Source: a virus
DNA: 61,527 nt
Strand: one strand, 5' to 3'
Virus record (IMG/VR): IMGVR_UViG_3300033069_001718
Location: 1-61,527 of that record
Shown here: positions 1 to 54,679 of the stretch, piece after piece
Layout: each line of letters starts with the position of its first letter
Numbering within the stretch: the first letter of the stretch is position 1
Position numbers and translations under genes: made by a program
Notes under the pieces: model-generated
Database searches by the model: none
What the model saw: the letters and a program-made list of their open reading frames with translations, nothing else
Told to the model about the DNA's origin: nothing

Positions 1-66
1 GGCACAGATATTCCGCGAGGTAACTCCCGCCGCTTCCTGTTACTCCGGTTATTAACACTTTTTGCG

Positions 67-492
67 TCATATCTTTGCTTTTAGTAAATCACTGGAAGAA
101 TACCTTTTTGGTTGGTTAAGGACAACTTCTTTTATTCCCAATTCTTCACAGATTTTTGTTTCTGCGCTTTCAAGATTCGTCGTTGTTCGGTCCCCGCTGT
201 TAAAAAAATACAACTCATCTTCCGGAAATATTTTTTTTATTAATTTCAAGGTCTGACACACGGTTTTATCAACGTCGAGGGATGGATATACCCAATTTAC
301 GGATTTTAGAGCTGACATTATTTTACATCGGTGGTCACAATCCATAAATTTTTGAGAGCCCTTCAATTCCACCTGCGTATCATTATTGACGATCACCACA
401 AGCTGATCACACAAGGATTTAGCTTCTGTAATGTATTCTATATGACCAAAATGAACCGGATTGAAGTAACCGGATACGATTCCTAGTTTCAT
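67..492 (-). CDS. small cytidylyltransferase-superfamily nucleotidyltransferase (TagD / RfaE-domain-II-like)
   Basis: N-terminal GYFNPVHFGH (HxGH nucleotidyltransferase signature). About 140 aa, like glycerol-3-phosphate cytidylyltransferase. First gene of the coupled minus-strand chain. Confidence 0.6.
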   Translation of the reverse strand: MKLGIVSGYFNPVHFGHIEYITEAKSLCDQLVVIVNNDTQVELKGSQKFMDCDHRCKIMSALKSVNWVYPSLDVDKTVCQTLKLIKKIFPEDELYFFNSGDRTTTNLESAETKICEELGIKEVVLNQPKRYSSSDLLKAKI

Positions 493-1199: not shown

Positions 1200-2146
1200 A
1201 GGGTGAGATCGAATTTAATGTTGTCGTAATTGTATTGTTCAGGGGTCATATACATGGTTTTTTTCAAATATGCGGCCAACCGCGCCGGATCGATGGCAAA
1301 CCCCTCCGGAGTATATTTACTGGGATCATGCATTTTGTAAAGCATATTCAATTTTGGCCCTGCTTCATTATAACCTAACCCAACCGCATCTGCTTCCGGA
1401 GTAAAGATGATATCGTGGATATCCAACCCGGCGTTCAAATTGTTCGCCGCGCCTTTAGGCCCAATATGATCTTTAATGGCCACTCCGGCGCCATCCATGG
1501 CCTTCACATGTTCAACGACTAAATCTTTTACCACTGCCCATTGCTTACTTATACTCGCGTTGAAAAAAGAATAAACACTTTCAATACAATAGGCCGCAAA
1601 AATATCAGGAATTAAACGGCCGTAATACTCTCTCAACTTTCGGTCATAGTATTGGAAATGGAGGTTGACACATTTTCCAACTGGAATAATCAAATCCTGT
1701 CCCCGGAAGATGGTATTTTTTGGAACATCGAACCACCAATCATAACCCATGTCATCATCGGTCTGTAAACTTATCATACCATATTTTTCTGTCATCGCTC
1801 GTTGGTTTATTTCCGATAGACAATTGTAATGTTCTTTAGTATTGATCCCGGAATCGATGTAAATATAACCATCAAATTCTCCCGCTTGTTTTACCACCTC
1901 CGTCACCGTTTTATTGAAAGTGAAGGGGAGGTTTAAACTTTCATCCATGTAATTATACCAGATCTTATTACCATAACGCTTTTTTAGGCCCTGTTTGGTT
2001 GCGCCGGTGACGCCACAACCACTAATAACAATACGAAACGGTTCGTGGTGCTGAGCTAAAAGTTTATCCAGAGAATCGATATACTGAAACAGATTGTTGT
2101 ATTTTAATTCGCAGATATTGAATATAACCAATAGATTCTTGTTCAT
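1196..2146 (-). CDS. hypothetical protein in glycan cluster (possible glycosyltransferase)
   Basis: Long ORF, translationally coupled on both sides. No clear motif. Confidence 0.45.
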   Translation of the reverse strand: MNKNLLVIFNICELKYNNLFQYIDSLDKLLAQHHEPFRIVISGCGVTGATKQGLKKRYGNKIWYNYMDESLNLPFTFNKTVTEVVKQAGEFDGYIYIDSGINTKEHYNCLSEINQRAMTEKYGMISLQTDDDMGYDWWFDVPKNTIFRGQDLIIPVGKCVNLHFQYYDRKLREYYGRLIPDIFAAYCIESVYSFFNASISKQWAVVKDLVVEHVKAMDGAGVAIKDHIGPKGAANNLNAGLDIHDIIFTPEADAVGLGYNEAGPKLNMLYKMHDPSKYTPEGFAIDPARLAAYLKKTMYMTPEQYNYDNIKFDLTL

Positions 2147-3726: not shown

Positions 3727-4686
3727 TTAACCAATGGGATAAATAGTCGATACGCCATTGCGCTCGAATTGAAAATCAAAAACAGCCGGACCAAACTTTT
3801 CAGCGATACGCTTTTTAATCGGTGGGTCGCAGATAACCAATACGAAACCACAACCACCGGCGCCCAGTAACTTAACACCATGTGCGCCCATCGCCATAAC
3901 TTCATCTACTATGGTATTGATTTGGGAAGTAGAAATCAAGTTGGATATTTTGATTTTTTCTTGCCAGGTCGAATATAACATATTGCCGATACCTTTAATA
4001 TCTTCCCGAATAAAATAACCATAAGCTTCTTTGGCTAGTTTCATAATTTCCAGCTTGTCTTTGTTTTCATGAGACTGAGCGATGGTATCTTGATTCCGTT
4101 GGGAATTGGTATAGATCATAACCATCGAATCCTGAAATTCTTTAAGAAAATCGTGGGTGACTGGTAAAGGTTTTACGAGAAATTTTCCATTTTTTTCTAT
4201 CTCAATGGTGTTCAAACCGCCGTAGGCTGGCCAGATTTGGTCTTGGATTCCTCCGGGTTCGTTTAAAATACGTCGTTCGATGGCGATGGCCTCTTTAGCC
4301 AACTCTTTGGGATCGTGTTTCTTCCCAAAAATTTGATTTAAGAGATATAACATCCCTACGCAAAAAGAGGATGATCCACCCAAACCTGTGCGTGAGGGGA
4401 TATCAGAGAACGAATTAAACTCAATTGGAATGTTGATCGCACGATATTTTAATACTTCCCGAATGAGTGGGTTTTGAATTTCATCCCACGACTTTACCAA
4501 TTGTAGTTTAGAATAGGTTATAACACTCTCACTGGATAGTATACTTGGTCTTGGGCGCATTGAGAGGTAAACATATTTGTCAATTGTAGTCCCGATAATA
4601 AAAGACCCATACGCTTCGTAAAACGATTCGTAGTCAGTTGAACCGCCGAAGAAAGAAATTCGAAATGGGGATCTTACTATAATCAT
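3727..4686 (-). CDS. GHMP-family sugar kinase
   Basis: PSRTGLGGSSSFCVGML matches the GHMP kinase ATP-binding motif (PxGSGLGSSAA). 319 aa, similar in size to heptose or galacto-kinases. Confidence 0.7.
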   Translation of the reverse strand: MIIVRSPFRISFFGGSTDYESFYEAYGSFIIGTTIDKYVYLSMRPRPSILSSESVITYSKLQLVKSWDEIQNPLIREVLKYRAINIPIEFNSFSDIPSRTGLGGSSSFCVGMLYLLNQIFGKKHDPKELAKEAIAIERRILNEPGGIQDQIWPAYGGLNTIEIEKNGKFLVKPLPVTHDFLKEFQDSMVMIYTNSQRNQDTIAQSHENKDKLEIMKLAKEAYGYFIREDIKGIGNMLYSTWQEKIKISNLISTSQINTIVDEVMAMGAHGVKLLGAGGCGFVLVICDPPIKKRIAEKFGPAVFDFQFERNGVSTIYPIG

Positions 4687-5678
4687 TACACTATGGTTTT
4701 GCGAATATAATCAATTACTTCGTCAAGACTCTCGTCGATCTTGTATTGAGCTTCAAATCCCAAGACCTCTTTAGCCTTGCCAATGTTCGGTTGACGATGC
4801 TGTATATCATACTGGAAAGGAGGATCGTGGACAACACTAAAAGGTTTATTTCCATTAATTTTAACCCAAATCTTTTTAGCGAGATCGATTATTTTTATGT
4901 TTTCATCGGTGGAGATGTTAAAATCATCGTTTTCCGCTTTTGAACTTTCCATTGCCATTATAATACCCCGAGCAATATCCTGACCATTGGTAAAGTTGCG
5001 GGTTTGTTCACCGCTTCCAAGGATATGTAATGGGTCCTGACCTTTTAAGGTTTTAAAAATCAAGTCCGGCACGACATGGGATAACGTCAATTTTATGTTT
5101 CCAGACAACACTTCGGATTTTGCTACTGCGGAATCTTCGCCCACGCCTATACAATTGAAAGGTCTAACAATAGTATATTTCAATCCATATTGCTCGTATG
5201 CGGCTCTGGCAAAATATTCCGTCGCCAGTTTTTGAAAACCATAACTACTATCCGGCGGCGGAGATTTTTTAAGATCGGCTTCCGCCGATGGGAAAGTTTT
5301 AGTATTTTCAAATACCATTGAACTGGAAATTACTACTATACGTTTTAACCCTTTCATTTTAATGGCCGCGTCGAAGGTATTACAACCGATCCGCTCGTTA
5401 GCGGAAAGCAAATCGTAAGCAAAAGCATGAAAATAAGAGATGCCTCCGATCATTGCTGCGCCGGCAATAATATAATCCACTCCTGGAAGTCGTGGAAATG
5501 ACTGAGTCAAGTCGTGTTCAATTAATTGAAAACTTGGATTGTGATCGTGTGGTCTTCTAACCTTACCATACTTGGAAAAGTTATCAATGCCATATACGAA
5601 ATAACCCCGTTTTAATAACTGTTGGACGATATAACCACCAATGAAACCTTGTGAGCCTGTAACAATTACTTTTTTCAT
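4686..5678 (-). CDS. NAD-dependent epimerase/dehydratase (SDR)
   Basis: VIVTGSQGFIGGYIV GxxGxxG Rossmann motif. Start set at the ATG (MKKVIVTG) that overlaps the stop of the upstream gene. The track start at 5717 is an alternative-codon extension. Confidence 0.65.
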   Translation of the reverse strand: MKKVIVTGSQGFIGGYIVQQLLKRGYFVYGIDNFSKYGKVRRPHDHNPSFQLIEHDLTQSFPRLPGVDYIIAGAAMIGGISYFHAFAYDLLSANERIGCNTFDAAIKMKGLKRIVVISSSMVFENTKTFPSAEADLKKSPPPDSSYGFQKLATEYFARAAYEQYGLKYTIVRPFNCIGVGEDSAVAKSEVLSGNIKLTLSHVVPDLIFKTLKGQDPLHILGSGEQTRNFTNGQDIARGIIMAMESSKAENDDFNISTDENIKIIDLAKKIWVKINGNKPFSVVHDPPFQYDIQHRQPNIGKAKEVLGFEAQYKIDESLDEVIDYIRKTIV

Positions 5679-6613
5679 TAAATTCCTCTTATATTTGGAT
5701 AATTTTGAAGAAACCACTCTACTGAATTTTTGATAGCTATATCCAAATCAGTAAACTTAAAATCGGGAAACAACGAACGAAAGCGTGCCGTGTCCGACGG
5801 CCGGCGCAATTGCCCATTTGGTTTTTCGCTCAGATATTCGACATTCGGATATTCAAAATATTGGGTAATTCTTTCTACCAACTCTCTGATAGAAAATTCC
5901 TTGTTGTCAGATACGATAAGTAAATCTGGGGTATCATCTTCCATTTTTAAAAGTTCAACGCAGATTTTGGCTAGATCTTTGGAATAACAAAATTCGCGTT
6001 TAGCGATGCCGGTGCCCCAGACTTGAAATGGTTTATTGCTGCTTTTTGCGTCGTAACATTTTCGAATTAGACTGGGCACAACATGCCCATTTTCCAGGTC
6101 GTAATTGTCATGTTCGCCGAAGATATTTACAGGTAAAACCGATGAGTAATGTTTTATCCCATATTGCTTACGGTAAGATTTGATTTGAATATCAACCATC
6201 CGTTTAGAGTAAGCATACGACCCATGCGCATAATAAGGTGGCCCGTCATGAAGGATTTCCTCCTTGATGACCGTTGCGTTGTCAGGAAAAGCGCACACCG
6301 ACGAAAAGGCCAAAAGTTTCTCCACTCCTTGTTGATAGGCCTCATCAATCACCAAGGTATTCATAATAATGTTATGAAAGAATTGTTCCGCTGGTGAGGC
6401 GAGGTTTTTCCCAATTCCGCCGACCCTGGCCGCCGTATGAATAACATAATCCGGTTTCTCAGTTTTAAACACCGACTTGACATGGGCTTGATTGGTAAGG
6501 TCTGCTGATTTGTGATCGACGAATACAAAATTATATTCAGGGTAGACGGAAGATACACTTTTTAGAGCATTTCCTACTAAACCATTACCTCCCGTTACTA
6601 ATATTTTTTTCAT
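5678..6613 (-). CDS. GDP-L-fucose synthase-like 3,5-epimerase/4-reductase (Fcl / ColC-like SDR)
   Basis: ILVTGGNGLVGNAL N-terminus. HTAARVGGIGKN resembles the Fcl HLAAKVGGI region. 311 aa. Confidence 0.6.
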   Translation of the reverse strand: MKKILVTGGNGLVGNALKSVSSVYPEYNFVFVDHKSADLTNQAHVKSVFKTEKPDYVIHTAARVGGIGKNLASPAEQFFHNIIMNTLVIDEAYQQGVEKLLAFSSVCAFPDNATVIKEEILHDGPPYYAHGSYAYSKRMVDIQIKSYRKQYGIKHYSSVLPVNIFGEHDNYDLENGHVVPSLIRKCYDAKSSNKPFQVWGTGIAKREFCYSKDLAKICVELLKMEDDTPDLLIVSDNKEFSIRELVERITQYFEYPNVEYLSEKPNGQLRRPSDTARFRSLFPDFKFTDLDIAIKNSVEWFLQNYPNIRGI

Positions 6614-6618
6614 AACAT

Positions 6619-7410
6619 TTAATCCATTCTCATTCCCGCTTGTATAGTCTTTTTGTATTTTCCGTTTTCTTTTAACAAAGCGTCAAAAAAATCCACATCT
6701 AATTTCCGCGCGACTGAAGCAATTTCCTTTGTGTCTTTCGGCAGACAAACTCCCGCAAACCCTCTAAAATTATCATTACATTCCAGATACATATCCACAA
6801 TATGATTTCGGTTGACCATCGTGTTTTTAATGTGGGTGTAATCAACTTCATAATGTTTACAAACTTCATAAAAGCTATTGGCGAAAGTAATTAAAGTAGC
6901 ATTGTAAGTATTATTGAAATACTTGACCAGCTCCGCTTCGGTTGGAGTCATCTGAACAATTTTCTTTGGAAAATTCCCATGCGCATTTTTAAGCAATTCA
7001 AAGACAGATTGATCATCAGTCCCGACAACGCAGAGATCGTGGTTCTCCGTGAAGTCGGCTAAGGCATATCTTTCTCTGAGAAATTCTGGAGTCATAGCTA
7101 ATTTTAATCCTGTGTAAAAATCTGCCAATTTTTGAGTTGTGCCAGGCGCCACCGTTGATTTTATACATACCACCCCGGTATATTCCTTTTCATCCAACAA
7201 ACAAACCACCGATTCGACAACGGATGTGTCGCATGAACCATCTGGTTTTGACGGAGTAGGTACGCATAAGAATACTAATTCGGTATTCAACACTTCATCA
7301 ATGGTGGTACCTAGTTTAAGGTCATGGACTTTTACAACATGTCCTAATTTTTCAAACCCACCTTTACACGCATTACCCACTACTCCCAAGCCAATAATCC
7401 CGATATTCAT
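6619..7410 (-). CDS. nucleotide-sugar dehydrogenase-like NAD-binding protein (short UDP-glucose/GDP-mannose dehydrogenase-like)
   Basis: IGIIGLGVVGNACKGGFEKLGH plus a FLCVPTP motif typical of the UDP-glucose dehydrogenase N-domain. Only 263 aa. Confidence 0.5.
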   Translation of the reverse strand: MNIGIIGLGVVGNACKGGFEKLGHVVKVHDLKLGTTIDEVLNTELVFLCVPTPSKPDGSCDTSVVESVVCLLDEKEYTGVVCIKSTVAPGTTQKLADFYTGLKLAMTPEFLRERYALADFTENHDLCVVGTDDQSVFELLKNAHGNFPKKIVQMTPTEAELVKYFNNTYNATLITFANSFYEVCKHYEVDYTHIKNTMVNRNHIVDMYLECNDNFRGFAGVCLPKDTKEIASVARKLDVDFFDALLKENGKYKKTIQAGMRMD

Positions 7411-7979
7411 TTAGTTGCCTCCAGATTTAGACTGACTAGTTTACCTTCGATATCACTATCTTTCCGCCGCGTCGTATAGGCCATTTTTGGTAAATAACAT
7501 TGACTATAATCGTCAATATAAAAGTGTTCAGTGTCCCTCCAGTCGTATTTTTTTACCGACTGAAATCCAGCAACCTTCAAGTCCCGGCTGAGTGATTTCT
7601 CATCCCACCCCATATAATGAAAATCATAAGCGTGTCTCTGAGAACCGTAAAGCAGGGCTTGTAAAATATCCAGGTCTTTGTTGGCTATATAATATTCCAT
7701 TGCTGCGCCCAAATCGGGAACTGCGACTCGCAATACACCTCCTGGCTTCAAAACTTCAAACCAACGGCGCATAGCTTGCTTCGACCCCGCCCGTGTGGCG
7801 TGCTCCAAGACATGACAGACGTAGATTAAATCGACGGAGTCATTTTTGAATTTGTCTAGCTTAAACACATCATCTATTACATCTGGCTGGACATCTTCCC
7901 GGATGTCGATGTTGATGAACCCGTGGATTTTCTTTTGAAAACAACCGAGATGTAGTTTGACTTGTTTGTCATTGTTCAT
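7407..7979 (-). CDS. class I SAM-dependent methyltransferase
   Basis: VLKPGGVLRVAVPD motif-II-like. About 190 aa. Confidence 0.55.
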   Translation of the reverse strand: MNNDKQVKLHLGCFQKKIHGFINIDIREDVQPDVIDDVFKLDKFKNDSVDLIYVCHVLEHATRAGSKQAMRRWFEVLKPGGVLRVAVPDLGAAMEYYIANKDLDILQALLYGSQRHAYDFHYMGWDEKSLSRDLKVAGFQSVKKYDWRDTEHFYIDDYSQCYLPKMAYTTRRKDSDIEGKLVSLNLEATK

Positions 7980-9921
7980 AGGTCTTGTGTATTTCTTTCA
8001 CTTTTGTTTTATACCGATACGAGCGCCTGCCATACCAAATAGTTTCATATCCCCACTTGACAATGTCGTGTTCTGTAACCTTTGTCTTTTTTGAGAATGT
8101 AATCGGACCTTTAATCAGATCACTATCGCCGTTAAAATAACCTACCCAATCGAAGGCAAATTTTCCTTTAACTTCTTCTAAAAGCCGGTTTTCAGGCAAA
8201 CTTAACACCAATAATTGATAGTTTATTAGATCTTCAACCAGTTCGGCGGTTATACTTACACCCGTCTCCACATTTAAATAGTTCAGAAAAGACGACAACT
8301 CTTCTTTTATTCTGGAAGAATCGCGGGTGAGATGTAACCAACTTGCTTCTTCCATTGGCCAAGATATATCCCCCAAGTCATGATCGTAATAATCCCACCC
8401 TTGACCAGAATAACCATTTTTACAATGGTTTCTGGCTAGTTCGTATTCCTTACCGATGAAGGTTTTATTTTTCTTCATATACTCAGCAAGGTGATTATAA
8501 AATTGTTTGTAACTAAGGTTGTGTGATTTATTGTAATATCTGGATATCATTTCCGTGATGCCAAAGACGTGGAATATCATCATCATCCAGTTTGTCATAT
8601 ACACTTCTTCAATTTTACCATTTGGCAATGCGTCTGTGGCACATACCATTTTTTCAAATTCCTGAATCTCTCCGACCTTTTCCTTTTTGGCAATATGCTG
8701 CATGAACTGAGGCGATTTGAAAGCTTTAATCCCATAACGTTTCATATAGTCTGGATTATTCATTGGCGCATTAACAAAAATACTACAATTCCATACCATA
8801 ATTGCTGGTTGGGGGTCTAGTGAAGCGAGAATTTCCCAATTGTTTTTGAAGCTGTCAACCGTCTCTTCGGGCAACCCCATTATCATCTCCGTATAACTCT
8901 GAATCCCCTCATCATTGAACTTTTTAATCAGTCCTGAGAAGCTATCAAATTTTAAATTCTTACGTTTAATAGCTTCCAGTGTTTTGGGATCAAGGGATTG
9001 GACTGAAAGGGAAACAGCTCGCAATAAATCAACATCATTTAACACTTTTGCGATTGGAATGACCCGGTCTGATGAAGTCTTGACCCAAGTAAGGCCAATT
9101 CGCTCTGGAAAGCCGGTGGATTTTTTAAGGTCGGCTAGTTTTATCGCGATGTCGTGATCTCGCTTTTGAAAAATTCCAAAGTTCCCATCGCAACAATCGA
9201 TGTATGTGATGTTGTTTTTTCCAAACCATTCAATTTCTTTGAAAATTCTTTTTTCATCAAACGGTCTCAACTTGGACATAGTCGAACTTCCCCAGTCGCA
9301 GAAGGTACATGAAAACGGACATCCACGATTGGTTTCCCACGAAACGATATACTTTATGTTTGGATCACGCCGAGAAAGTTTCCAGATTAGATCGGTGGAG
9401 TAGGGGGATGGCCACTGACTGATGTCCGGCGTACGTATGCGTGGCTGACTTCGGTAGAATTTTGTTTCGGTTCCGTCGATATTTAAATTTTCCAAATTCA
9501 ACCCTGAAGCAAATTGTTTCAGAATTTCGTAAGAAGTGATTTCTCCTTCTCCGTGAACAAGAATATCCACGAATGGATTTTCATCAAAAAATTTGCCATC
9601 GTGGCTGTATGGAACTTCCGGACCTCCAAATACTATAATACATTGAGGATTTATAGCCTTTACACTTTTGGCTAAAAATTTGGTTATTTCCCAATTCCAC
9701 GAATAACACGAACAGAGAATGATCTTTGCTTCGCTTGCTTTAAGAATGTGATCTTGAATTTCAGAACGGAAGAGGAACGTCTCTTCAAAATCAAAAACAT
9801 CGGTGATTTCTTTAAATTGGAAACAATACGAAACTAAACACGCAATACTATAAGGAAAGTGAATTTGATTGTTTCCGAAGAAATTACTATATTGGCTGGA
9901 ATATACTTTTATTTTATCCAT
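7969..9921 (-). CDS. B12-binding radical SAM enzyme
   Basis: WETNRGCPFSCTFCDWGS CxxxCxxC. N-terminal IIVFGGPEV B12-domain-like. Start moved to the ATG preceded by AGGAGAT (MDKIKV). Confidence 0.75.
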   Translation of the reverse strand: MDKIKVYSSQYSNFFGNNQIHFPYSIACLVSYCFQFKEITDVFDFEETFLFRSEIQDHILKASEAKIILCSCYSWNWEITKFLAKSVKAINPQCIIVFGGPEVPYSHDGKFFDENPFVDILVHGEGEITSYEILKQFASGLNLENLNIDGTETKFYRSQPRIRTPDISQWPSPYSTDLIWKLSRRDPNIKYIVSWETNRGCPFSCTFCDWGSSTMSKLRPFDEKRIFKEIEWFGKNNITYIDCCDGNFGIFQKRDHDIAIKLADLKKSTGFPERIGLTWVKTSSDRVIPIAKVLNDVDLLRAVSLSVQSLDPKTLEAIKRKNLKFDSFSGLIKKFNDEGIQSYTEMIMGLPEETVDSFKNNWEILASLDPQPAIMVWNCSIFVNAPMNNPDYMKRYGIKAFKSPQFMQHIAKKEKVGEIQEFEKMVCATDALPNGKIEEVYMTNWMMMIFHVFGITEMISRYYNKSHNLSYKQFYNHLAEYMKKNKTFIGKEYELARNHCKNGYSGQGWDYYDHDLGDISWPMEEASWLHLTRDSSRIKEELSSFLNYLNVETGVSITAELVEDLINYQLLVLSLPENRLLEEVKGKFAFDWVGYFNGDSDLIKGPITFSKKTKVTEHDIVKWGYETIWYGRRSYRYKTKVKEIHKTYEQ

Positions 9922-10684
9922 ATCTCCTGGGCCACACGCTAGGAGCATTAACCCAATTCGCGTAATCTATTTTGATCCGGTCGGGATCATACGCGGCATA
10001 CATTTTTGCAAATAGAGGTTGGTCATTTTCAACATAGGCTCGGAAAAGAATTGATTGTACATAATTAGGGTTCCAATCACAAGCCATTACTTTTGATGGT
10101 GAGAGTAACATTTTGCCACCGGTTTTTTGGAGGCGGAAGGCAAAGTCGTGGGTGTTCATATTAACGTGTTCAAAACGACAATCAAGACCGCCTAGCTCTC
10201 TAAAGTAAGCGGTGTTATACATAAACGACGGCGCAATTTTCCATTCCGGCAAAACTCCAGGAATTTGTTGGTCGCCGTGAAAGCGCGCAGTCCAATACTC
10301 CGGAATTTGATCATTGTCACCGCCCTGATAACCAACGCCTTCGGAATAGCGTAGGACAATGCCATCTTTTGGAGTGTTGTCGTAGGCTAACTGAAGACAT
10401 TCAGACAAAGAATTTTTCATTAACCGACAATCATCCGGAATCAACGCAATATAATCTCCGTCCGCAAAAAACGTGCCCATTTGGTAGCACCGCGCAGGAG
10501 AACCCTTATCAATAAAGAATTTGAAATTTTTCTTGGAACGCAATTCTTCCGGCGGCAGTTCGGGCCCAACACAAATGAGTTCGAAAGTGTGTGGGCTACC
10601 AACGGATGCTATTAACTGATCGTAGATATCAACTAATTTACTGGGAGTTATGGTTGGGATGATGACGCTGAGATTGTATTTCAT
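9914..10684 (-). CDS. glycosyltransferase family 2-like
   Basis: LSVIIPTITP N-terminus. Confidence 0.55.
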   Translation of the reverse strand: MKYNLSVIIPTITPSKLVDIYDQLIASVGSPHTFELICVGPELPPEELRSKKNFKFFIDKGSPARCYQMGTFFADGDYIALIPDDCRLMKNSLSECLQLAYDNTPKDGIVLRYSEGVGYQGGDNDQIPEYWTARFHGDQQIPGVLPEWKIAPSFMYNTAYFRELGGLDCRFEHVNMNTHDFAFRLQKTGGKMLLSPSKVMACDWNPNYVQSILFRAYVENDQPLFAKMYAAYDPDRIKIDYANWVNAPSVWPRRYG

Positions 10685-10687
10685 AAA

Positions 10688-11518
10688 TTAAAATCGTTTT
10701 TTCCACACTGCGGGACTCTTTTTCCAATTCGAAACATCCAACAATAACTGATCGGCTTGTAGGGGTTTGGAATATTTTTCAATATAGATCGGGTAGTCGT
10801 CCTGAAACTGAGCGGCGACGATTGGGCCATGATCCCCAACATTAGGGTTGGGTTGGCAGTCGCAGTTCAACATTGGATAATCACTCATAACTACTTTTGC
10901 GCCCAAGGCTTGCGCTCGGACGGCCATATCCGCATGACCCGTTGGACACGCTTGATACTTACAATCCCAGGCTCCCAACTTATCAAAAAATTCACGATAT
11001 AAAATCGCCACGTTAAAAATCCACCAGTCAGGATGAATATACGGCGACGGAGGATAGGCTCGGACAAGTTTATAATAGCTATCATCGGCACCTCCATGCC
11101 GCGGGTCAGTCCCAGATCGGTTTTCGCCTTCAAGGTATCTAGCCACGACAACGTTTTGTACATCATATGGCATGGCATATAGTGTATCAATGTTTTTGTC
11201 CAACGCATCTTTAATAAACCAACCGTCGTCGGAAGTCCACATAACCAATTTCCCCTCACACAACTCTGCTCCAATATTTGAAGCGCGCATGGGAGAACCA
11301 AAATCCTTCACATACTTTACATTTTTTTGTTCTTGGAGAAATTTGGTTAAGGGGTAAGGGCCAACTACGATAAGTTCAAAGGAACGTTGGGTAGAATCCA
11401 ATATGGTTTTGTACACATCATCCCATTTATCCTGACGGATCGCCGGCATTATAATAGATACTTCCGGTTTTTCAACGGTGTTTAAAGAACTGACTAGAGT
11501 ATATTTGTATTCGCTCAT
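10688..11518 (-). CDS. glycosyltransferase family 2-like
   Basis: VSIIMPAIRQ N-terminus. Paralogous to the neighbouring GT2-like genes. Confidence 0.55.
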   Translation of the reverse strand: MSEYKYTLVSSLNTVEKPEVSIIMPAIRQDKWDDVYKTILDSTQRSFELIVVGPYPLTKFLQEQKNVKYVKDFGSPMRASNIGAELCEGKLVMWTSDDGWFIKDALDKNIDTLYAMPYDVQNVVVARYLEGENRSGTDPRHGGADDSYYKLVRAYPPSPYIHPDWWIFNVAILYREFFDKLGAWDCKYQACPTGHADMAVRAQALGAKVVMSDYPMLNCDCQPNPNVGDHGPIVAAQFQDDYPIYIEKYSKPLQADQLLLDVSNWKKSPAVWKKRF

Positions 11519-11521: not shown

Positions 11522-12478
11522 TTAGGTGTTAAGATTACCGACCGCTATTTCAAGATTTTTATACCACCGCAGATATTCAGGAGTTCCAGGCATAGGAGCC
11601 ATGTCTGGAGTTAGTTCCGTTCGTATCTTATAGGTTTCATATTCTTTTCCTGTAATAGGAATTGGATATTTAAAGAACCGACGATCCCACACATCTGGTT
11701 GATTTTTCCAATTAGAATAGTTTAAAGTCTTTCGTTTGGTAGCCGCCGCTGGGTCTTGGTAAATTTGATTGAATAGTATCGTATCCACGCCCAATGTGGC
11801 GTCATGAACAGGTCCGTGATCTACTAGATGGCCGGAGTAATGCGTAAACACGGCGGCGACCTTTTCAAAATCGGTGACCTTGCCACCATCGGCTTGAACT
11901 CTAAAAATCATATCATGAATGGCATGATTGGAATACTCCCAACGACAATCAAATCCGCCTAGTTCCAGAAAATAATCCAATTTCATAAAAAAATGAAGTG
12001 AGATTCTCCACTCAGGTTTTATTCCGGGTTGTTGTAAGTCGGGCCAAAAACCGGCACGCCACAACTCAGAGTTATACGGTACGGGATTTACTTCAATGGG
12101 GTTTAAAGTATTCATATCCAACACATGTTTCCCTTCCACGTAAACCATGTTAATGACATCTTTTGGCCCCATAGTTTTGCGATGTAATTCAATCGCTTCG
12201 TCAATGACATCTTCCAACAGAAACCCGTCGTCGGTGATGTTGTAAAGAAACTCACCGTTACATAACTGGATGGCTAATTGTTTAGCCACGGTGGGCGCCG
12301 CGTGGGTTTTTATGACTTTGATATTAGGCATTCGTTTTACATCTTCAGGAACATCAAAGGGTGTGGGGATAACAATTTCCCAGGAATGTTTCTTACAGGC
12401 GGATTGAACCGATGCGCAGAAAGTTTCTAAAAAATGGGGCCGAATACTTGGGAGAATTATAGATACGTCTTTTTTCAT
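11522..12478 (-). CDS. glycosyltransferase family 2-like
   Basis: VSIILPSIRP N-terminus. Shares a conserved C-terminal region (GGxDCRWE, AxHD) with the 9914 and 10688 paralogs. Confidence 0.55.
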   Translation of the reverse strand: MKKDVSIILPSIRPHFLETFCASVQSACKKHSWEIVIPTPFDVPEDVKRMPNIKVIKTHAAPTVAKQLAIQLCNGEFLYNITDDGFLLEDVIDEAIELHRKTMGPKDVINMVYVEGKHVLDMNTLNPIEVNPVPYNSELWRAGFWPDLQQPGIKPEWRISLHFFMKLDYFLELGGFDCRWEYSNHAIHDMIFRVQADGGKVTDFEKVAAVFTHYSGHLVDHGPVHDATLGVDTILFNQIYQDPAAATKRKTLNYSNWKNQPDVWDRRFFKYPIPITGKEYETYKIRTELTPDMAPMPGTPEYLRWYKNLEIAVGNLNT

Positions 12479-13644
12479 ATTTGGTTTAGCAACGTGGTTA
12501 GCTCATTAATCTTTTCCTTTTCCAGTTCTGGATAGTTTCCGATATACCAGCCAAAATGATGGACGTGATCCGCATTGGGGAATTTTTTATAGGCTTCGTT
12601 GTAAATCCCCCGAAGATAAGGTTGACGGAGCTGATTGCCGCCTCCGGACATACCCCGGCGGAATTCTATACTATTTTGGTTCAAACAGATTTCAACCTTG
12701 TCGCGTGTGGCGAAATCCTTGTCCCGCAACATAAGGGTGAAGGCATAATTACTATTTCCAATCCGGTTAAAATCGGTGTAGAATTTTTTCGCATCCAAAC
12801 CATCCAAGAATACATCAAGATTTTCTTTCCTACGGAGATTGTTTTCGTCAAGGCGGTCTAGTTGGTTCAAAGCCATTACCGCATTAATCTCCGTTGACCG
12901 CATATTATAGGCAGGCGCCACGAAAATAAAATCCTTGTTTAAATCTGGAAAGTCTTTAAAAATAGTCTCCTTTAATTGATCATCGGTACTCTCACGCAAC
13001 ATGCCATGCGAACGAAACATCCGCACGGTCTGATAGATCAAATCGTCATCGGTACAAATCATCCCACCTTCAATGCTGGTCATATGATGCGCATAATAAA
13101 ATGAAAAATTGGAAATCAAACCGAAGCTGCCTGCTTTTTTCCCATTAAAAGTTGCGCCGTGGGATTCACAAACATCCTCAACCAACATTAACTTGTTCTG
13201 TTCGCATAGATCAAGAATACCTTGCGTCAAACCGTTATAACCCAGCACATGGGTCAGGAACACGGCTCGAGCATCCTTAGAACACTTCTCCAGTTCTTTT
13301 TCATCTAAAGCAAGAGTTTTAAGGTTGATGTCACAGAACACAGGTTTTAATTCCGATTGAAGCACCGATGCGATATCTGATACCCACGTCAACGGTGGCA
13401 CAATAACTTTGCTGTTTTGTGGCAGGGATAAAAACCGTAAGACGCTCATCGTCAAAAGATTGGCGGCCGAACCAGAGTTTAAAAATACGGAATGTTTTTT
13501 ACCCACCCACGCCGACCAACGTTTTTCAAATTCTACCACTTTTTTACTGTTGGTAAGAATGGGCATCGGTTCTTGGTTCAAGAATTCTACGATCTTATTC
13601 AAATCGTTCCGGGTAATATTATTGTTCATCAAAGGCCATTTCAT
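12475..13644 (-). CDS. DegT/DnrJ/EryC1-family PLP enzyme, probable NDP-4-keto-6-deoxyhexose 3-dehydratase (ColD / E1-like)
   Basis: DegT-like fold (SGSAANLL, HVLGYNG, EDVCESHGA). The PLP-lysine position reads FYYAHHMTSIEGG, with His in place of Lys, as in ColD/E1 dehydratases. Start placed at the ATGA-coupled ATG. The track start is TTG. Confidence 0.55.
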   Translation of the reverse strand: MKWPLMNNNITRNDLNKIVEFLNQEPMPILTNSKKVVEFEKRWSAWVGKKHSVFLNSGSAANLLTMSVLRFLSLPQNSKVIVPPLTWVSDIASVLQSELKPVFCDINLKTLALDEKELEKCSKDARAVFLTHVLGYNGLTQGILDLCEQNKLMLVEDVCESHGATFNGKKAGSFGLISNFSFYYAHHMTSIEGGMICTDDDLIYQTVRMFRSHGMLRESTDDQLKETIFKDFPDLNKDFIFVAPAYNMRSTEINAVMALNQLDRLDENNLRRKENLDVFLDGLDAKKFYTDFNRIGNSNYAFTLMLRDKDFATRDKVEICLNQNSIEFRRGMSGGGNQLRQPYLRGIYNEAYKKFPNADHVHHFGWYIGNYPELEKEKINELTTLLNQI

Positions 13645-14600
13645 AGTAATTCTGCTTTCATCCAATCGTATGTTTTTTGGATTCCGGTAATAAGGTTTAC
13701 TTTGGGTTCCCAACTAAGGACATTTTTAGCCTTCGATACATCAACCCGCCTCACTGGAATCATTTGCGGCCCAGTGGGGATTAGTTTATATGGGGTTATG
13801 ACTCCAGATACAGATTGAATCATCTGTAAGAGTTCCAGGACGGTAAACGACGAACCATAACCAATATTGAATTGGTTGAACCCATCTATTTTCTCTGCGG
13901 CCAGGAGCATCGCATCAACCATATCATCCACATATAACACGTCTCTAACATCTTGTCCGGTCCCCCACACCTCCACGGGATTCTGACCTTCAATAACTTT
14001 GCGAATTAGGGAGGCGAGAACGTGGGAACGCTTAGGGTCAATCTTATCATTCGGACCGTAGATATTAGACGGTCGGAGGGTAATACATGTCATTGGGTCT
14101 TTGACTTTGGTGGAATATAACTCACACAACTTTTCGGTGTATCGCTTCATCCAACCAACGGCGAAGTATTTATCAAAAGGGTCACCAACGAACATTTCTT
14201 CTTCGGTCATTGGTTGGGCACCTTCCGGATATCCGGTCGTGCTCGCCAACCATATGAATTTTTTAACTTTATTACGATAACAGGCATCAAGAAGATTTAT
14301 GTTCATGATGGTGTTATCCTTTGACATTGCCGTTGGTGATTCTAAATGGGTTGCTGCGCCGGAGCTATTCGCCGCGCAATGGAAAACAACGTCGGTATCC
14401 TTTGTTATTTCATCGCAGAATTTCTGGTCTAGCAAATCTCCCGCCTTGGATCTTAAACACACATTCAAATTTTTTATTGGATTCTTATGATGCGTGGTCA
14501 GTAAACTACATTGATAATTTTTTATTATCGTTCGGCTTAGATTAGAACCGATCAATCCAGAGGCTCCGGTGATCAATATGTTTTTTCCGTTTAAAGTCAT
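13641..14600 (-). CDS. NAD-dependent epimerase/dehydratase (SDR)
   Basis: ILITGASGLIGSNL Rossmann motif. 319 aa. Confidence 0.7.
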   Translation of the reverse strand: MTLNGKNILITGASGLIGSNLSRTIIKNYQCSLLTTHHKNPIKNLNVCLRSKAGDLLDQKFCDEITKDTDVVFHCAANSSGAATHLESPTAMSKDNTIMNINLLDACYRNKVKKFIWLASTTGYPEGAQPMTEEEMFVGDPFDKYFAVGWMKRYTEKLCELYSTKVKDPMTCITLRPSNIYGPNDKIDPKRSHVLASLIRKVIEGQNPVEVWGTGQDVRDVLYVDDMVDAMLLAAEKIDGFNQFNIGYGSSFTVLELLQMIQSVSGVITPYKLIPTGPQMIPVRRVDVSKAKNVLSWEPKVNLITGIQKTYDWMKAELL

Positions 14601-15508
14601 AACTTTTCTTCCGTATAAATATCCAGTAAACGTTTTTGTTCAGAATCTGTCAAAAGGGGGAGATTTTGAGCTTCAATATTCTCACTAACTTCAGTTCTTA
14701 GTTTCATTCCAGGAATTATAGTACAAACGGATGGATTAGACAAACAAAATCTTAAACAATTTTGCGCATCGGAATATTTATTAGGATCCAATGAACCTAG
14801 CATTTTTTTATAGATCTGAGTCATTTTAGAGACGCGTTCCTGAGACCAATTATTTCTGCGGTCGGCTGTATCGTCATTAAATTTAAAACAACCGGTGAGA
14901 ATTCCCTGACCAAGCGGCGTGCGGATAACTGTTTTAACTCCCTTCTTGACACACAAATCAAAAAGGCCCGACGTTTCCGCCCGGCGGTCCAGTAAATTGT
15001 AATTTACTTCAATGACTTCAAACCCATATTCATTTATGGCAATAAATCCATCCTCTGGATTTTTTAGAGAAATACCTTTTCTTTTTATCAGTCCACTATC
15101 TTTCATTGTGTCCAGATACCAAAGGAGATGACAATCTTTTAAAACTTCTATGTCCGGACTATGTAACATATACACGTCAACGAAATCGGTTTTCAATCGT
15201 GCCAAGCTTTGGGTAAGAGATTTGGCCAAATGGGTAATGGAAAAGTCCTGTTTACCGTCGTTGGAAATCATACCCCCCTTGGTAATGAGGACGATATCAT
15301 TTCGCACTTTATGAAACAAGTCCCCTAACAACGATTCGGTATAACCGTAACCATAAAAATCTGCCGTATCAAAGACATTTATACCCTGGGCAAACGCATA
15401 CATTAAAGCTTTAATCGAATCCGTCTCATTTACTTTTCCGTAAGAGATTGAACCATTGACATCACCGACTAATGGCCATGTCCCATAACCTATTTTATTC
15501 CATATCAT
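14597..15508 (-). CDS. aldo/keto reductase family oxidoreductase
   Basis: N-terminal GYGTW...GINVFDTADFYG is AKR-like. Confidence 0.6.
   Translation of the reverse strand: MIWNKIGYGTWPLVGDVNGSISYGKVNETDSIKALMYAFAQGINVFDTADFYGYGYTESLLGDLFHKVRNDIVLITKGGMISNDGKQDFSITHLAKSLTQSLARLKTDFVDVYMLHSPDIEVLKDCHLLWYLDTMKDSGLIKRKGISLKNPEDGFIAINEYGFEVIEVNYNLLDRRAETSGLFDLCVKKGVKTVIRTPLGQGILTGCFKFNDDTADRRNNWSQERVSKMTQIYKKMLGSLDPNKYSDAQNCLRFCLSNPSVCTIIPGMKLRTEVSENIEAQNLPLLTDSEQKRLLDIYTEEKL
14601..14624 (-). promoter_or_regulatory. same motif on the minus strand upstream of the SDR gene 13641..14600
   Basis: Minus-strand reading: ggATATTTATAcggaagaaaagttATGACT. The motif lies inside the 3-prime end of the upstream AKR gene. 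Confidence 0.35.
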
Positions 15509-15510
15509 AA

Positions 15511-17493
15511 TTAAAAATGTCCCTGTAAGATATATTCTGATTCCCAGTTGCCATACAGATATGCGCCTTTTTTATTGCCGTACCAAACCACTTCCTTGAA
15601 CCACTGCGGCCAGTTGGTATATGTGGTTTTAGACCGTTCGATTTTGTACTTGGTGGAAACCTTCTCCAGCTCCTTCGAATCTGACTCTAACGCAGCGCGG
15701 TAAAACTTCATAATATCATAATTAAGAGTAATGTCAATATCATCATTGACGAATGGGAGTTTTAATAATTGCCGATTTAACTTAAAAGCATCGTCAAGCG
15801 CGGCTAAGTCTGCGTTTTGACCGGTATTTTTCAATAGGGCTAAAAGTAAGTTCTGGGCTTCCTTATAAAACTGATCAACTTTGTTTTCGACCACCAATTT
15901 TATATAGGAGTATTCGTCTGCGGGCCACCAGATATTCAACCATTCTTTAGCTTCACAATATTCCGCGCCTCCGGTTTGAATATCCAACGCTTTGGCGACA
16001 AAAAATTCCCTAATCTCATTGATTACCGGATAGTTTTTCGTATAATTTTCATCCATAAACGCAGAGAAAATGTCCTTGTAACTAATTCCTGATTGTTTGT
16101 GAAACAGGATGATGGGTATTTGCATGATCTTATCGAAGTGAAGCAACGCGGTCATCCAACAATAAGCTCTAGTTTTTAACCAATCATTCTTTGGCATAGA
16201 ATCCGTCCCCACGACAAGAACCTGTTTTTCACGAATGGAAAGGTCATCTTTTTCTTCATCCAATGAACCGTGGAAATTGATAATATCAGTTGTCACCATC
16301 TTCATACCAAATTTCTTTTGATATTCCGGATTACCCATTTCTGCGTTAGGTAGGATGGAGAGATTATTAAACTGAATGCGATTGTGTTGTCCGTTACGCA
16401 TGATCTGATCAATTCCACTTATGAATGAATCGTAAGTTTCTCCGGGCATGGCTAGAATCATATCGGAATAAGTTTCCACTTTATCCCGCATAAACCGGCG
16501 TTGTAGTTCTTGATAGGAGGCGAGTGAAATATTGTCCCGCCGGATATTGGTAAGGGTTGTTTTATCCATCGACTGAACCGAAAGCGTCACGCCTTTATTC
16601 AACCCCGCATCGGACAGCATTTTTTGAATTTCGTAGGATCGATCCGTCGCATTCTTGGTATTTTGAACAGAGAGGGCTTTAGGGTAGCCGGTTTTCGTTT
16701 TGACATCGACGATGTATTTGGTGATATCGATGTCCCGAACAAGAATGCCGTAATTCGCATCACAACAGAAGACAAATTCCACTTTATGCCCCGCGAACCA
16801 ATCTACTTCCCTGAACAATCGTTGCTCTTCAAATTTGCTGATTTTGACCTGAATCGCCGAACCCCAGTCACAATAAGCGCATTGGAATGGACACCCACGA
16901 TTGGTTTCCCATAACCCCAACCATTGTTCTCCTGGGTTTTTTAGGATGATGGAATCAAACGCGCCGTTTAGATAGGGCGATGGCAATTCATCTAAAGTCT
17001 TGAATCGGCCAACTTTCGGGTTGTTAACAAACTTTCCTTCATGGATATATGATATTCCCGGAACATCCTTCCACGTCTGTTTCAAATCTCCAGTGTAGTT
17101 TTGGAGGATGAGAGTAAAAACATGTTCCCCCTCTCCGTGGACAGCTAGGTCAATGAACGGGTGTTTAGGCAACCACGCCTCCGCCTTATCCGGAACTTGG
17201 GGGCCTCCAAAAATAATAAGACATTTTGGATTTAACTTTTTTAGTTCGGCCGCAATTTTAAGCGAAATTCTTTCATTCCAGACATAGGTGCTAAAACCAA
17301 CGATATCACAATATTTGAGGTGTTCAACCGCAACGTGAACTGGAACACGTTTATAGATCGGGTCAATGAATTCATACTCTGATACTTTGGGGCAGTGCGC
17401 ATGCGCATATACCTGAATTAATCCCGCAGCGTAGGGAAAATAACTCTGGCCGGAAAAACTTGTATTAATTTGGACGAGTCCAACTTTTTTCAT
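15511..17493 (-). CDS. B12-binding radical SAM enzyme
   Basis: WETNRGCPFQCAYCDWGS. N-terminal LIIFGGPQV. Paralog of 7969..9921. Confidence 0.75.
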   Translation of the reverse strand: MKKVGLVQINTSFSGQSYFPYAAGLIQVYAHAHCPKVSEYEFIDPIYKRVPVHVAVEHLKYCDIVGFSTYVWNERISLKIAAELKKLNPKCLIIFGGPQVPDKAEAWLPKHPFIDLAVHGEGEHVFTLILQNYTGDLKQTWKDVPGISYIHEGKFVNNPKVGRFKTLDELPSPYLNGAFDSIILKNPGEQWLGLWETNRGCPFQCAYCDWGSAIQVKISKFEEQRLFREVDWFAGHKVEFVFCCDANYGILVRDIDITKYIVDVKTKTGYPKALSVQNTKNATDRSYEIQKMLSDAGLNKGVTLSVQSMDKTTLTNIRRDNISLASYQELQRRFMRDKVETYSDMILAMPGETYDSFISGIDQIMRNGQHNRIQFNNLSILPNAEMGNPEYQKKFGMKMVTTDIINFHGSLDEEKDDLSIREKQVLVVGTDSMPKNDWLKTRAYCWMTALLHFDKIMQIPIILFHKQSGISYKDIFSAFMDENYTKNYPVINEIREFFVAKALDIQTGGAEYCEAKEWLNIWWPADEYSYIKLVVENKVDQFYKEAQNLLLALLKNTGQNADLAALDDAFKLNRQLLKLPFVNDDIDITLNYDIMKFYRAALESDSKELEKVSTKYKIERSKTTYTNWPQWFKEVVWYGNKKGAYLYGNWESEYILQGHF

Positions 17494-53527: not shown

Positions 53528-54679
53528 ATGGAAATCAAATCAATTGAGTCCGCTAAAATTAATGATAATCGTCCGACGGTGGTAGTGACAGGAGTTACAG
53601 GTCAGGACGGCAGCCACATGGTTGATTATCTTCTTAAAAAAACAGATTATATAGTCTATGGTGCGGCTCGAAGGTTGAGTGTGGCAAACCACTCCAACAT
53701 TAAACATATAAACGATGGGCGATTTGTATTATTTAATATGGATGTCACCGACCCTCATAGCATTGGCAAAACCATATCGACGCTAAAACCTAAATATTTC
53801 ATAAATTTCGCAGCCCAAAGCTTTGTGGGATCAAGTTGGGATTTTCCGGAACAAACGTGGCAAACAAACTGTACTGCGGTTTTACATATGTTGGAGGCAA
53901 TTCGGCAATACCACCCAACTTGTCGTTTTTATAACGCGGGGTCTTCGGAGGAAATGGGGGATGTGATAGTTTCTCCGCAAGATGAGACTCACCCCGCTCG
54001 GCCACGCTCACCTTATGGCGCATCAAAAGTAGCTGCGCGGCAGTTGGTTAAGGTTTATCGGGAATCTTACCATCTCTACGCGGTCCAGGGTTGGTTGTTT
54101 AATCACGAAGGAACCCGCCGGGGGGAAGAATTTGTAACCCGCAAAATTACTAAGAGCGTAGTTAGAATTTTTAACGATTTAAAAAAGGAACGTTTCATCG
54201 TCCCGCTTTTATTGGGGAATGTAGACTCCGAACGTGATTGGGGTGACTCAGAAGACTTCGTTGACGCGGTCTGGCGCATGTTGAATCAAGAGGAATACAA
54301 TTCCAATTTCCCCACAGGAAATATTATGTTGCCTGGAGCAAGTCAGTCCCGAATAGTTAGCAATATTAAAGATTACGTCGTTGGTACGGGTGAAGTTCAT
54401 TCGATCAAGGAATTCGTAGAAGAGGCTTTTAAAAATGTGGGGATTTATGGTCAGTGGGAAATGACCGACCGGGCAGGAGGCGAACTAGCCCAATTCATCG
54501 GACGCGTTATCAGTTCTCCTATTATTCTAGCCAAAACCTCTCCCGAATTTTACCGCCCGGCGGATGTCAATAACTTAGTCGCGAACTATTCCGCGATCAA
54601 AAACGATCTGGGTTGGGCACCGACTACCACTTTCAAAGAATTGATAAAAAAAATGGTCAGCAACGACCTCAAGGCATAA
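53528..54679 (+). CDS. gmd: GDP-mannose 4,6-dehydratase
   Basis: VVVTGVTGQDGSHMVDYLL is the hallmark Gmd N-terminus (TGxTGQDGS). 383 aa. AAGGAG-like SD. Confidence 0.85.
   Translation: MEIKSIESAKINDNRPTVVVTGVTGQDGSHMVDYLLKKTDYIVYGAARRLSVANHSNIKHINDGRFVLFNMDVTDPHSIGKTISTLKPKYFINFAAQSFVGSSWDFPEQTWQTNCTAVLHMLEAIRQYHPTCRFYNAGSSEEMGDVIVSPQDETHPARPRSPYGASKVAARQLVKVYRESYHLYAVQGWLFNHEGTRRGEEFVTRKITKSVVRIFNDLKKERFIVPLLLGNVDSERDWGDSEDFVDAVWRMLNQEEYNSNFPTGNIMLPGASQSRIVSNIKDYVVGTGEVHSIKEFVEEAFKNVGIYGQWEMTDRAGGELAQFIGRVISSPIILAKTSPEFYRPADVNNLVANYSAIKNDLGWAPTTTFKELIKKMVSNDLKA

Follow-up and report, generated by a model that had tools for sequence, protein, structure and literature searches.

The 61,527-nucleotide viral contig IMGVR_UViG_3300033069_001718 (hereafter the window, meaning the whole stretch analysed) is part of a T4-like myovirus genome and carries, within a dense glycan island, an open reading frame (ORF 12475–13644) encoding a ColD-type sugar C3-dehydratase. 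We propose, with a probability of about 0.6, that this enzyme acts in a phage-encoded module for modifying nucleoside diphosphate (NDP)-heptoses, and not on the GDP-4-keto-6-deoxymannose derived from the phage Gmd. The most likely reaction is C3-deoxygenation of an NDP-4-keto-heptose, with or without its 6-hydroxyl. An initial annotation of the sequence had joined the ORF with a gmd gene and an Fcl/ColC-like gene in a GDP-L-colitose route split across three loci. The three ORFs were confirmed where it had placed them, with ORF 12475–13644 and ORF 5678–6613 on the minus strand and Gmd on the plus strand. All three are intact, and their homology matches are too strong for chance to explain.

Translation of ORF 12475–13644 starts at an ATG at 13644, which shares bases with the upstream gene's stop codon (ACTATGA), and yields 389 amino acids (aa), including FSFYYAHHMTSIEGG, the region of the AHHMTSIEGG motif. 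The Pfam domain DegT_DnrJ_EryC1 (PF01041; 223 bits, E = 8e-66) is present at full length across residues 29–382. The top solved relative is E. coli O55 ColD (2gms; E = 1e-47, 166 bits), with Yersinia E1 (3bcx; E = 1e-32, 117 bits) below it. The first histidine of the motif occupies the column of ColD His188, the position of the lysine that binds pyridoxal 5'-phosphate (PLP) (YYAHH in the phage protein, FYSHH in ColD). This column is fixed by the mutant entries H188K (2r0t) and H188N (3b8x), which differ solely there, and a MAFFT alignment concurs. The cofactor-site motifs SGSxANL, the stacking tryptophan, EDxCES, FS and YNxR are all kept. Alignment with E1-like paralogs, which show WGRGCYC...C, revealed no four-cysteine [2Fe-2S] insert after the HH motif of the phage protein. 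The features that define ColD-type iron-sulfur (Fe-S)-independent 3-dehydratases as opposed to aminotransferases have been reviewed (PMC8987622); because the protein has histidine for lysine and no Fe-S motif, we assign it to the ColD type. It presumably catalyzes C3-deoxygenation with L-glutamate-dependent recycling of pyridoxamine 5'-phosphate (PMP). The earlier reading of this ORF as a DegT-family 3-dehydratase with histidine at the PLP-lysine position was therefore correct.

Two other readings of the enzyme bear on this assignment. The first is an ordinary sugar aminotransferase, as the cyanophage homologs are annotated, and we give it next to no credence: the DegT fold and the RefSeq name 'aminotransferase' for the homolog in cyanophage ACG-2014f speak for it, but the Schiff-base lysine is replaced by a histidine that is invariant in the clade members inspected and marks dehydratases (PMC8987622). 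We rejected the aminotransferase reading on this histidine at the lysine column. The second, an E1-type CDP-4-keto-6-deoxyglucose 3-dehydrase feeding an abequose-, paratose- or tyvelose-like CDP-3,6-dideoxyhexose route, is highly improbable. The top NCBIfam match is indeed RfbH/E1, the JGI labels of relatives read 'CDP-6-deoxy-D-xylo-4-hexulose-3-dehydrase', and the nucleotidyltransferase (NTase) of the module belongs to a cytidylyltransferase-like family. However, the RfbH/E1 score of 200 bits falls below the cutoff of 423, ColD outscores E1 among solved structures, and the four-cysteine insert is absent here and present in an E1-like paralog of the same cluster type. Furthermore, no E3-type reductase or CDP-glucose 4,6-dehydratase was found among the ORFs scanned, those shorter than ~150 aa being covered in part. 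E1 itself (DdhC/AscC/RfbH, CDP-6-deoxy-L-threo-D-glycero-4-hexulose 3-dehydrase) is likewise a histidine-type DegT-family 3-dehydratase, but it carries the [2Fe-2S] motif and needs an E3 reductase. The E1-type assignment given by NCBIfam and the JGI labels was thus rejected for want of the Fe-S motif.

Within its enzyme class the window protein falls in a separate clade, because it shares only 30% identity with ColD over 349 residues, far from the 62–67% shared by the characterised C. jejuni members. At least 8000 metagenomic candidates were scored, every one matching the ColD-like protein at E ≤ 1e-20. IMG/VR viral contigs hold 96 relatives, and the metagenomic clade runs to thousands of members, including SAR11 and candidate phyla radiation (CPR) bacteria. 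The window protein is 63–76% identical to members of this large clade, and the motif FSFYYAHH..EGG is invariant in those inspected.

To define the genomic context of the clade, we compared 80 bacterial and 80 viral loci with homologs 45–66% identical, scoring them with window proteins and with proteins from annotated contexts. Dereplication at 90% identity of the ColD-like protein gave 26 viral and 57 bacterial clusters, in which partners were counted within 10 kb of the ColD-like gene. A short-chain dehydrogenase/reductase (SDR) of the type encoded just beyond the left edge of the window (L094_SDR316, described below) was present in 25/26 viral and 42/57 bacterial clusters, and an HddA-like kinase in 23/26 and 47/57, respectively. 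A B12-binding radical S-adenosylmethionine enzyme (B12-rSAM) of the 2146–3723 type accompanied the gene in 23 of the viral and 29 of the bacterial clusters, and E1/transketolase-like proteins dependent on thiamine diphosphate (ThDP) in 12 and 16–19. SIS/GmhA-like genes (1/26 viral, 22/57 bacterial) and DdahA-type dehydratases (3/26 viral, 13/57 bacterial) were also found; Gmd-type dehydratases occurred in 3/26 viral and 0/57 bacterial clusters. A cupin epimerase was counted in eight viral clusters and a small CTP_transf_like NTase in six.

A locus in a complete Pelagibacter genome (L086) displays, in order, a B12-rSAM, a cupin, E1_dh, a transketolase, the kinase, the ColD-like gene, the SDR and an NTP_transferase–HAD phosphatase fusion, the phosphatase domain of which presumably bears the GmhB signature. 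NTP_transferase domains of this kind were present at 42 of the 80 bacterial loci (counted before dereplication). The bacterial combination of kinase, phosphatase, nucleotidyltransferase and isomerase follows the logic of GDP-D-glycero-D-manno-heptose synthesis. The clade is tied to heptose-pathway genes, namely the SDR and the HddA-like kinase and, in bacteria, GmhA-, GmhB- and HddC-like genes, and not to Gmd.

The 3.1-kb metagenomic contig L094 matches window positions 1–975 with 0 mismatches and reaches 2.2 kb past the left edge. It completes the SDR gene that runs off that edge directly after the NTase gene. The full-length protein (324 aa) carries TSE and YxxxK motifs and, among solved structures, comes nearest to the C. 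jejuni GDP-D-glycero-D-manno-heptose 4,6-dehydratase 7us5, at 182 bits versus ~100 for GDP-mannose 4,6-dehydratases (GMDs). The next gene on L094 encodes a 316-aa SDR (L094_SDR316) that scores 334 bits against 6vo6/6vo8. These entries are labelled in the PDB only as 'putative sugar-nucleotide epimerase/dehydratase'; we take them to be Cj1427, a GDP-heptose C4-dehydrogenase, and call the phage protein Cj1427-like. NCBIfam returned only generic SDR matches for both proteins. The DdahA-like SDR of this gene block is a closer and better-fitting dehydratase than Gmd, which lies ~40 kb off. The impression of a route split across three loci is hence largely an effect of the window edge, because the block has its own kinase and NTase, with the 4,6-dehydratase and the second SDR just past that edge.

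In the window, the nearest solved relatives of kinase 3727–4686 are the heptose-phosphate kinases 4n3o, 3k85 and 4usk (E = 1e-29 to 1e-27), and its top NCBIfam match is HddA (137 bits, below the cutoff of 600). The top NCBIfam equivalog of NTase 67–492 is rfaE_dom_II (60 bits, cutoff 181), and its PDB match is 3glv. A copy of the NTase with 57% identity stands beside the ColD-like gene and the kinase in a CPR metagenome-assembled genome (L002), and Pfam detected the NTase in two further contigs (L092 and L093). Likewise, the B12-rSAM 2146–3723 has a 58% identical copy in L002 and a 46% identical one in the phage contig L005.

In the route that we propose, the enzyme class, the catalytic histidine, the missing Fe-S motif and the gene content and co-occurrence come from the sequence data, and what we infer is heptose as the substrate, the carrier nucleotide, the sequence of reactions, the end product and the target of glycosylation. 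The HddA-like kinase and the RfaE-II-like NTase would convert a heptose phosphate into an NDP-heptose, presumably with an isomerase and a 7-phosphatase from the host. The Cj1427-like C4-dehydrogenase, the DdahA-like 4,6-dehydratase or both would then generate the 4-keto or 6-deoxy-4-keto heptose. Next, the ColD-like enzyme would remove the C3 hydroxyl with PMP as cofactor and histidine as acid/base, without an Fe-S cluster, the PMP being recycled from L-glutamate. One or more Fcl-family SDRs, with 5678–6613 as the best candidate, would reduce or epimerise the product, and B12-rSAM enzymes would finish the sugar, possibly by C-methylation. The glycosyltransferases of the island could then transfer it.

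There is a precedent for the central step. C. jejuni has C3-dehydratases of the ColD type whose substrate is GDP-6-deoxy-4-keto-heptose and which in vitro also accept the product of Cj1427 (PMC10440746, PMC10680097). The HS:5/HS:11 GDP-3,6-dideoxy-heptose pathway (Ghosh, Xiang and Raushel 2023, PMC10440746) uses an enzyme of the ColD type after heptose activation, which involves an HddA-type kinase, and after the action of a heptose 4,6-dehydratase. The phage block differs in having a CTP_transf_like NTase in place of HddC and extra B12-rSAM enzymes, and a search of the window found no cupin epimerase. It resembles the C. jejuni system in its kinase and DdahA-type dehydratase homologs, and in the SDR that we call Cj1427-like on the presumed identity of 6vo6. 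The C. jejuni enzyme is 62–67% identical to ColD, whereas the phage enzyme is 30% identical to it. In addition, the pairing of C3-dehydratase and Cj1427-like SDR is near-obligate in the clade, while in C. jejuni it has been reported only as an in vitro combination (PMC10680097).

Several observations weigh against a heptose substrate. The C. jejuni precedent holds by class and not by orthology, because of this difference in identity to ColD, and heptose activity for members of the clade is a prediction from sequence. Both key SDRs lie outside the window, on the 3.1-kb metagenomic contig, and the name Cj1427-like depends on the presumed identity of 6vo6/6vo8 as Cj1427, which their PDB label does not give. 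Searching the window by tblastn with queries taken from the clusters gave no gene of the GmhA, GmhB or HddC type. The genome does hold a true GMD-type and a canonical Fcl-type gene, and Gmd-type and ColD-like genes share an operon in 3/26 viral clusters. Finally, the kinase and the NTase score far under their equivalog cutoffs, and the activated sugar might be a non-heptose.

This last point also speaks for an alternative that we consider decidedly unlikely, in which the kinase and NTase activate a sugar that is neither heptose nor mannose and the ColD-like step leads toward a branched or C-methylated higher sugar made by B12-rSAM enzymes and, in relatives, also by ThDP enzymes. The frequency of B12-rSAM and ThDP/transketolase-like genes near the clade agrees with such a product, and our literature search found no described pathway for the cluster type. 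On the other hand, the nearest characterised relatives of the kinase, the NTase and the 4,6-dehydratase are heptose enzymes, as that of the fourth, the C4-dehydrogenase, presumably is, and the bacterial clusters add GmhA-like and GmhB-like/HddC-like genes.

The colitose-like route of the initial annotation is a third alternative, which we regard as unlikely. Here, Gmd would turn host GDP-mannose into GDP-4-keto-6-deoxymannose, the ColD-like enzyme would remove the 3-hydroxyl, and the 5678–6613 protein would yield GDP-L-colitose or another GDP-3,6-dideoxyhexose by epimerisation and reduction, possibly as a side branch should the dehydratase take both substrates. The enzyme classes it invokes were all verified. 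Gmd carries VTGVTGQDGS, in keeping with the TGxTGQDGS hallmark first noted, and matches solved GMDs at E = 1e-61 to 1e-66 (210–228 bits); it is nearer to them than to the heptose dehydratase 7us5 (E = 3.5e-26, 95 bits). Its TIGR01472 score (293) misses the cutoff of 415, in part owing to a ~24-residue insert. This insert, at residues ~257–280, is absent from all solved GMDs and splits the match in two around it.

ORF 5678–6613 matches human GDP-L-fucose synthase (4e5y) at E = 5e-73 and the C. jejuni heptose reductase MlghC (7anh) at E = 4e-40, keeps S-x-C, YxxxK and the catalytic histidine, and has an NCBIfam Fcl score of 207 bits, below the cutoff of 500. It is thus Fcl/ColC-like as had been suggested, and not nearer to RmlD/GalE. 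It is the best candidate for the final epimerase/reductase, and its sequence fits Fcl and ColC, and hexose and heptose substrates, alike.

The colitose-like route also has genomic parallels. Cyanophage ACG-2014f carries a contiguous Gmd homolog, an active-site-complete Fcl-type SDR and a histidine-bearing ColD-like gene, in a 25-kb locus for which the annotation lists no kinase. In the viral loci L178–L192 and L206 (~5–6 contig types), Fcl-like, ColD-like, kinase, NTase and Gmd genes form a single operon in this order; in L178–L192, homologs of ORF 5678–6613 (34–49% identity) stand directly upstream of the ColD-like gene, and the Gmd-type gene fills the slot held by the DdahA-like SDR in the window phage. 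Moreover, hexose and heptose enzymes of the ColD type are 62–67% identical (PMC10440746), which makes substrate breadth plausible.

Against this, the window protein shares 38% identity with the cyanophage copy, as compared with 63–76% with copies linked to the kinase and the L094_SDR316-type SDR. Gmd-type genes are rare near the clade, and at 65 viral Gmd loci no gene of the ColD clade lay within 10 kb. In ~10 IMG/VR contigs Gmd sits in the same conserved replication-region order as in the window (SNF2, 2–3 small ORFs, Gmd, HNH, ClpP), on the opposite strand from the ColD-like gene and away from the glycan island; the distance of about 40 kb given by the initial annotation was accurate. The cluster owns a DdahA-like dehydratase. 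Gmd and an Fcl-type enzyme suffice for GDP-L-fucose, and such a pair is already annotated in cyanophage S-SCSM1 (PMC9602691). GDP-L-colitose as the product is therefore not supported, given the 30% identity to ColD, the heptose-pathway neighbours and the rarity of Gmd nearby. The three genes do stand together in the operons of L178–L192; in the window Gmd is a conserved core-region gene, and one route joining all three is unlikely there.

At 13 of the 65 viral Gmd loci (L100, L135, L136 and 10 others in IMG/VR), the DegT gene found within 10 kb of the Gmd ortholog is E1-like (Fe-S) and not ColD-like. Some phages may thus combine a GMD-type dehydratase with an E1-type 3-dehydrase, which we know of in no characterised pathway.

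Compared with ColD itself (WbdK, the GDP-4-keto-6-deoxy-D-mannose 3-dehydratase of E. coli O55 and Yersinia pseudotuberculosis; 2gms, 3gr9), the phage protein shares the fold, length, histidine, cofactor motifs and lack of Fe-S, and presumably the PMP-dependent chemistry with glutamate recycling. It differs in sequence (Ser187 is replaced by alanine), and the neighbours of its clade are heptose-pathway genes instead of gmd, colC and manC. Cyanophage ACG-2014f (gp219–gp221) and the S-CAM7 homolog carry, in a T4-like phage glycan island, a ColD-like gene that shares the HH motif (FYFGHHMTTIEGG), the S-CAM7 copy being annotated as a putative 3-dehydrase. The GDP-3,6-dideoxyhexose model fits the contiguous, kinase-free ACG-2014f cassette better than the window. 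HddA-like kinases are already annotated in Caulobacter phage Cr30 and in some cyanophages. The enzyme class and the existence of phage copies of ColD-like, Gmd and Fcl genes in public genomes are thus already known. The initial annotation had described the sugar as not a known phage product. Deposited cyanophages do hold Gmd/Fcl-like/ColD-like cassettes, and we found no phage product that had been demonstrated biochemically. The narrower colitose claim is of modest interest because equivalent cassettes are already in published cyanophage genomes.

What appear to be new are the clade, its near-obligate pairing with the Cj1427-like dehydrogenase and B12-rSAM, and its carriage in phage glycan islands; a literature search found no relevant product or pathway assigned to this cluster type. 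Tentatively, the ColD-like and Cj1427-like pair might define a natural pathway to 3-deoxy (and 3,6-dideoxy) heptose-derived sugars that are further C-methylated or chain-branched by B12-rSAM and ThDP enzymes; it would be widespread among bacteria, SAR11 and Patescibacteria included, and T4-like phages would carry it as a mobile glycan island. In that case, the phage would have a sugar class made that is known to date only from an in vitro enzyme combination (PMC10680097). If the heptose assignment is right, a large uncharacterised 3-dehydratase clade would gain a testable function, and a Cj1427-type C4-dehydrogenase and a C3-dehydratase would work together in nature as well as in the laboratory. 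It would also be a further sign that the genomes of large phages can encode whole routes to rare surface sugars. Islands of this kind could alter the surface glycans of the host or coat virions with sugars, which would bear on receptor masking and superinfection exclusion.

Table 1 Sugar-pathway features of the window and their annotation
Position	Strand	Feature	Evidence
1..70	-	First 23 codons of a 324-aa DdahA-like NDP-heptose 4,6-dehydratase running off the left edge	L094 overlap
67..492	-	Small CTP_transf_like nucleotidyltransferase, RfaE-domain-II-like; putative sugar-1-phosphate NTase	PF01467, 59.5 bits
2146..3723	-	B12-binding radical SAM enzyme, conserved partner of the ColD-like clade	Pfam B12-binding + Radical_SAM
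3727..4686	-	HddA-like GHMP kinase, heptose-7-phosphate kinase type	PDB + NCBIfam
4686..5717	-	Extended SDR, epimerase/decarboxylase type, without dehydratase motif	Pfam Epimerase, 130 bits
5678..6613	-	Canonical Fcl/GMER-type NDP-4-keto-sugar epimerase/4-reductase; alternatively GDP-L-fucose synthase	PDB, catalytic residues
12475..13644	-	ColD-type C3-dehydratase (His-for-Lys, Fe-S-free; PMP/PLP-dependent, NDP-4-keto-sugar)	Pfam, PDB and motif evidence
13641..14600	-	Fcl-family SDR, without catalytic Tyr and Cys	NCBIfam Fcl, 166 bits
14597..15508	-	Aldo-keto reductase, member of trio	Pfam Aldo_ket_red, 169 bits
15511..17493	-	KedN5-family cobalamin-dependent radical SAM C-methyltransferase-like, member of trio	NF033712, 287 bits (cutoff 700)
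53528..54679	+	GMD-type GDP-mannose 4,6-dehydratase, conserved core-genome position	Pfam GDP_Man_Dehyd, 322 bits

The gene directly upstream of the ColD-like gene, with overlapping stop and start codons, encodes the SDR 13641–14600. This protein has threonine for the catalytic cysteine and valine for the catalytic tyrosine, and its orthologs share the change (valine or isoleucine at the tyrosine column). The protein may act as a non-redox SDR scaffold or work by another mechanism. Invariably together with the aldo-keto reductase and the KedN5-like radical SAM protein, in which Pfam detects B12-binding and Radical_SAM domains, it forms a trio (13641–17493) that recurs as a unit of its own in L091, L092 and L193. 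We rejected the SDR as a true ColC equivalent because it lacks the catalytic tyrosine and cysteine and moves with this trio. The other SDR in the table, 4686–5717, has UDP-glucose 4-epimerase and UXS as its top PDB matches and a 79% identical ortholog in the syntenic phage contig L005.

The assignment of the window to a T4-like phage genome is reflected in its core genes. The family-B polymerase (28449–31163) is 42% identical to that of Microcystis phage Mel-JY01 and ~30% to cyanomyovirus gp43, and the window also encodes an RFC-like clamp loader, a PD-(D/E)XK nuclease, homing endonucleases, an SNF2 helicase and ClpP. Megablast of window positions 1–25000 against deposited phages gave zero nucleotide matches, and relatives were reached at the protein level only.

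The dense glycan island occupies positions 1–23866 on the minus strand. Its sugar genes comprise the CTP_transf_like nucleotidyltransferase, the HddA-like GHMP kinase, four SDRs and a truncated UDP-sugar-dehydrogenase-like ORF; a methyltransferase, an aldo-keto reductase, three B12-rSAM enzymes and at least six glycosyltransferase-like genes are also present. With the DNA past the left edge, the island exceeds 24 kb and holds at least three B12-rSAM enzymes and, apparently, two different 3-dehydratases. The second of these is seen on L094 at 2838–3146 (~1.9–2.2 kb beyond the left edge) as a 103-aa N-terminal fragment of a DegT protein of the E1-like Fe-S type. The fragment aligns with 439–449-aa DegT proteins of the same cluster type that have histidine at the lysine column and the WGRGCYC..C insert, and a copy of this E1-like protein in L008 scores 354 bits against Yersinia E1 3bcx. 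The phage thus apparently also encodes an E1-type (Fe-S) 3-dehydrase, and two different 3-dehydratases in one island seem unusual.

A second glycan block (35181–43732) encodes glycosyltransferases (GTs) of the GT1, GT2 and GT25 families, a methyltransferase, a DXD sugar-binding GT, a B12-rSAM and a radical SAM protein that weakly resembles viperin (36 bits). Inside it, a LicD-like and cytidylyltransferase fusion (41284–42282) suggests phospho-alcohol transfer, for example of phosphocholine. The 61 kb thus hold four B12-binding radical SAM enzymes (2146–3723, 7969–9948, 15511–17493 and 42269–43732), all on the minus strand. Two are KedN5-family C-methyltransferase-like (231 and 287 bits), and the one in the second block is nearest the Sden_1168 family of P-methyltransferases (211 bits), all these scores lying below the curated family cutoffs. 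We know of no description of cobalamin-dependent chemistry on phage-made glycans.

ORF 6619–7410 (minus strand; 263 aa) is UDP-glucose/GDP-mannose-dehydrogenase-like and lacks the N-terminal Rossmann start and the entire C-terminal domain. Its counterparts in the related phage contigs L005 and L006 are equally long and 74% identical, and L091 has an ORF that matches it in size and domains. Because length and identity are kept across related contigs, we regard it as a maintained truncated form and not as a recent pseudogene. The tandem paralogues 9914–10684, 10688–11518 and 11522–12478 (minus strand) are 26–31% identical to one another's L005 orthologs, with a weak GT2 signal in the middle gene only. 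They are probably glycosyltransferases that use the product, because they are kept directly downstream of the ColD-like gene in related phage contigs.

The GT4 glycosyltransferase 22370–23866 (minus strand, 498 aa) is a single ORF in the window. At 1168–3883 of L005, its halves (79% and 81% identical) are parted by a 396-aa DUF723/zinc-ribbon ORF, which looks like a mobile-element insertion. A NUMOD3/DUF559 homing-endonuclease-like ORF (27754–28470, plus strand) ends 22 bases inside the start of the family-B polymerase gene, and a separate HNH endonuclease (54723–55367) adjoins Gmd.

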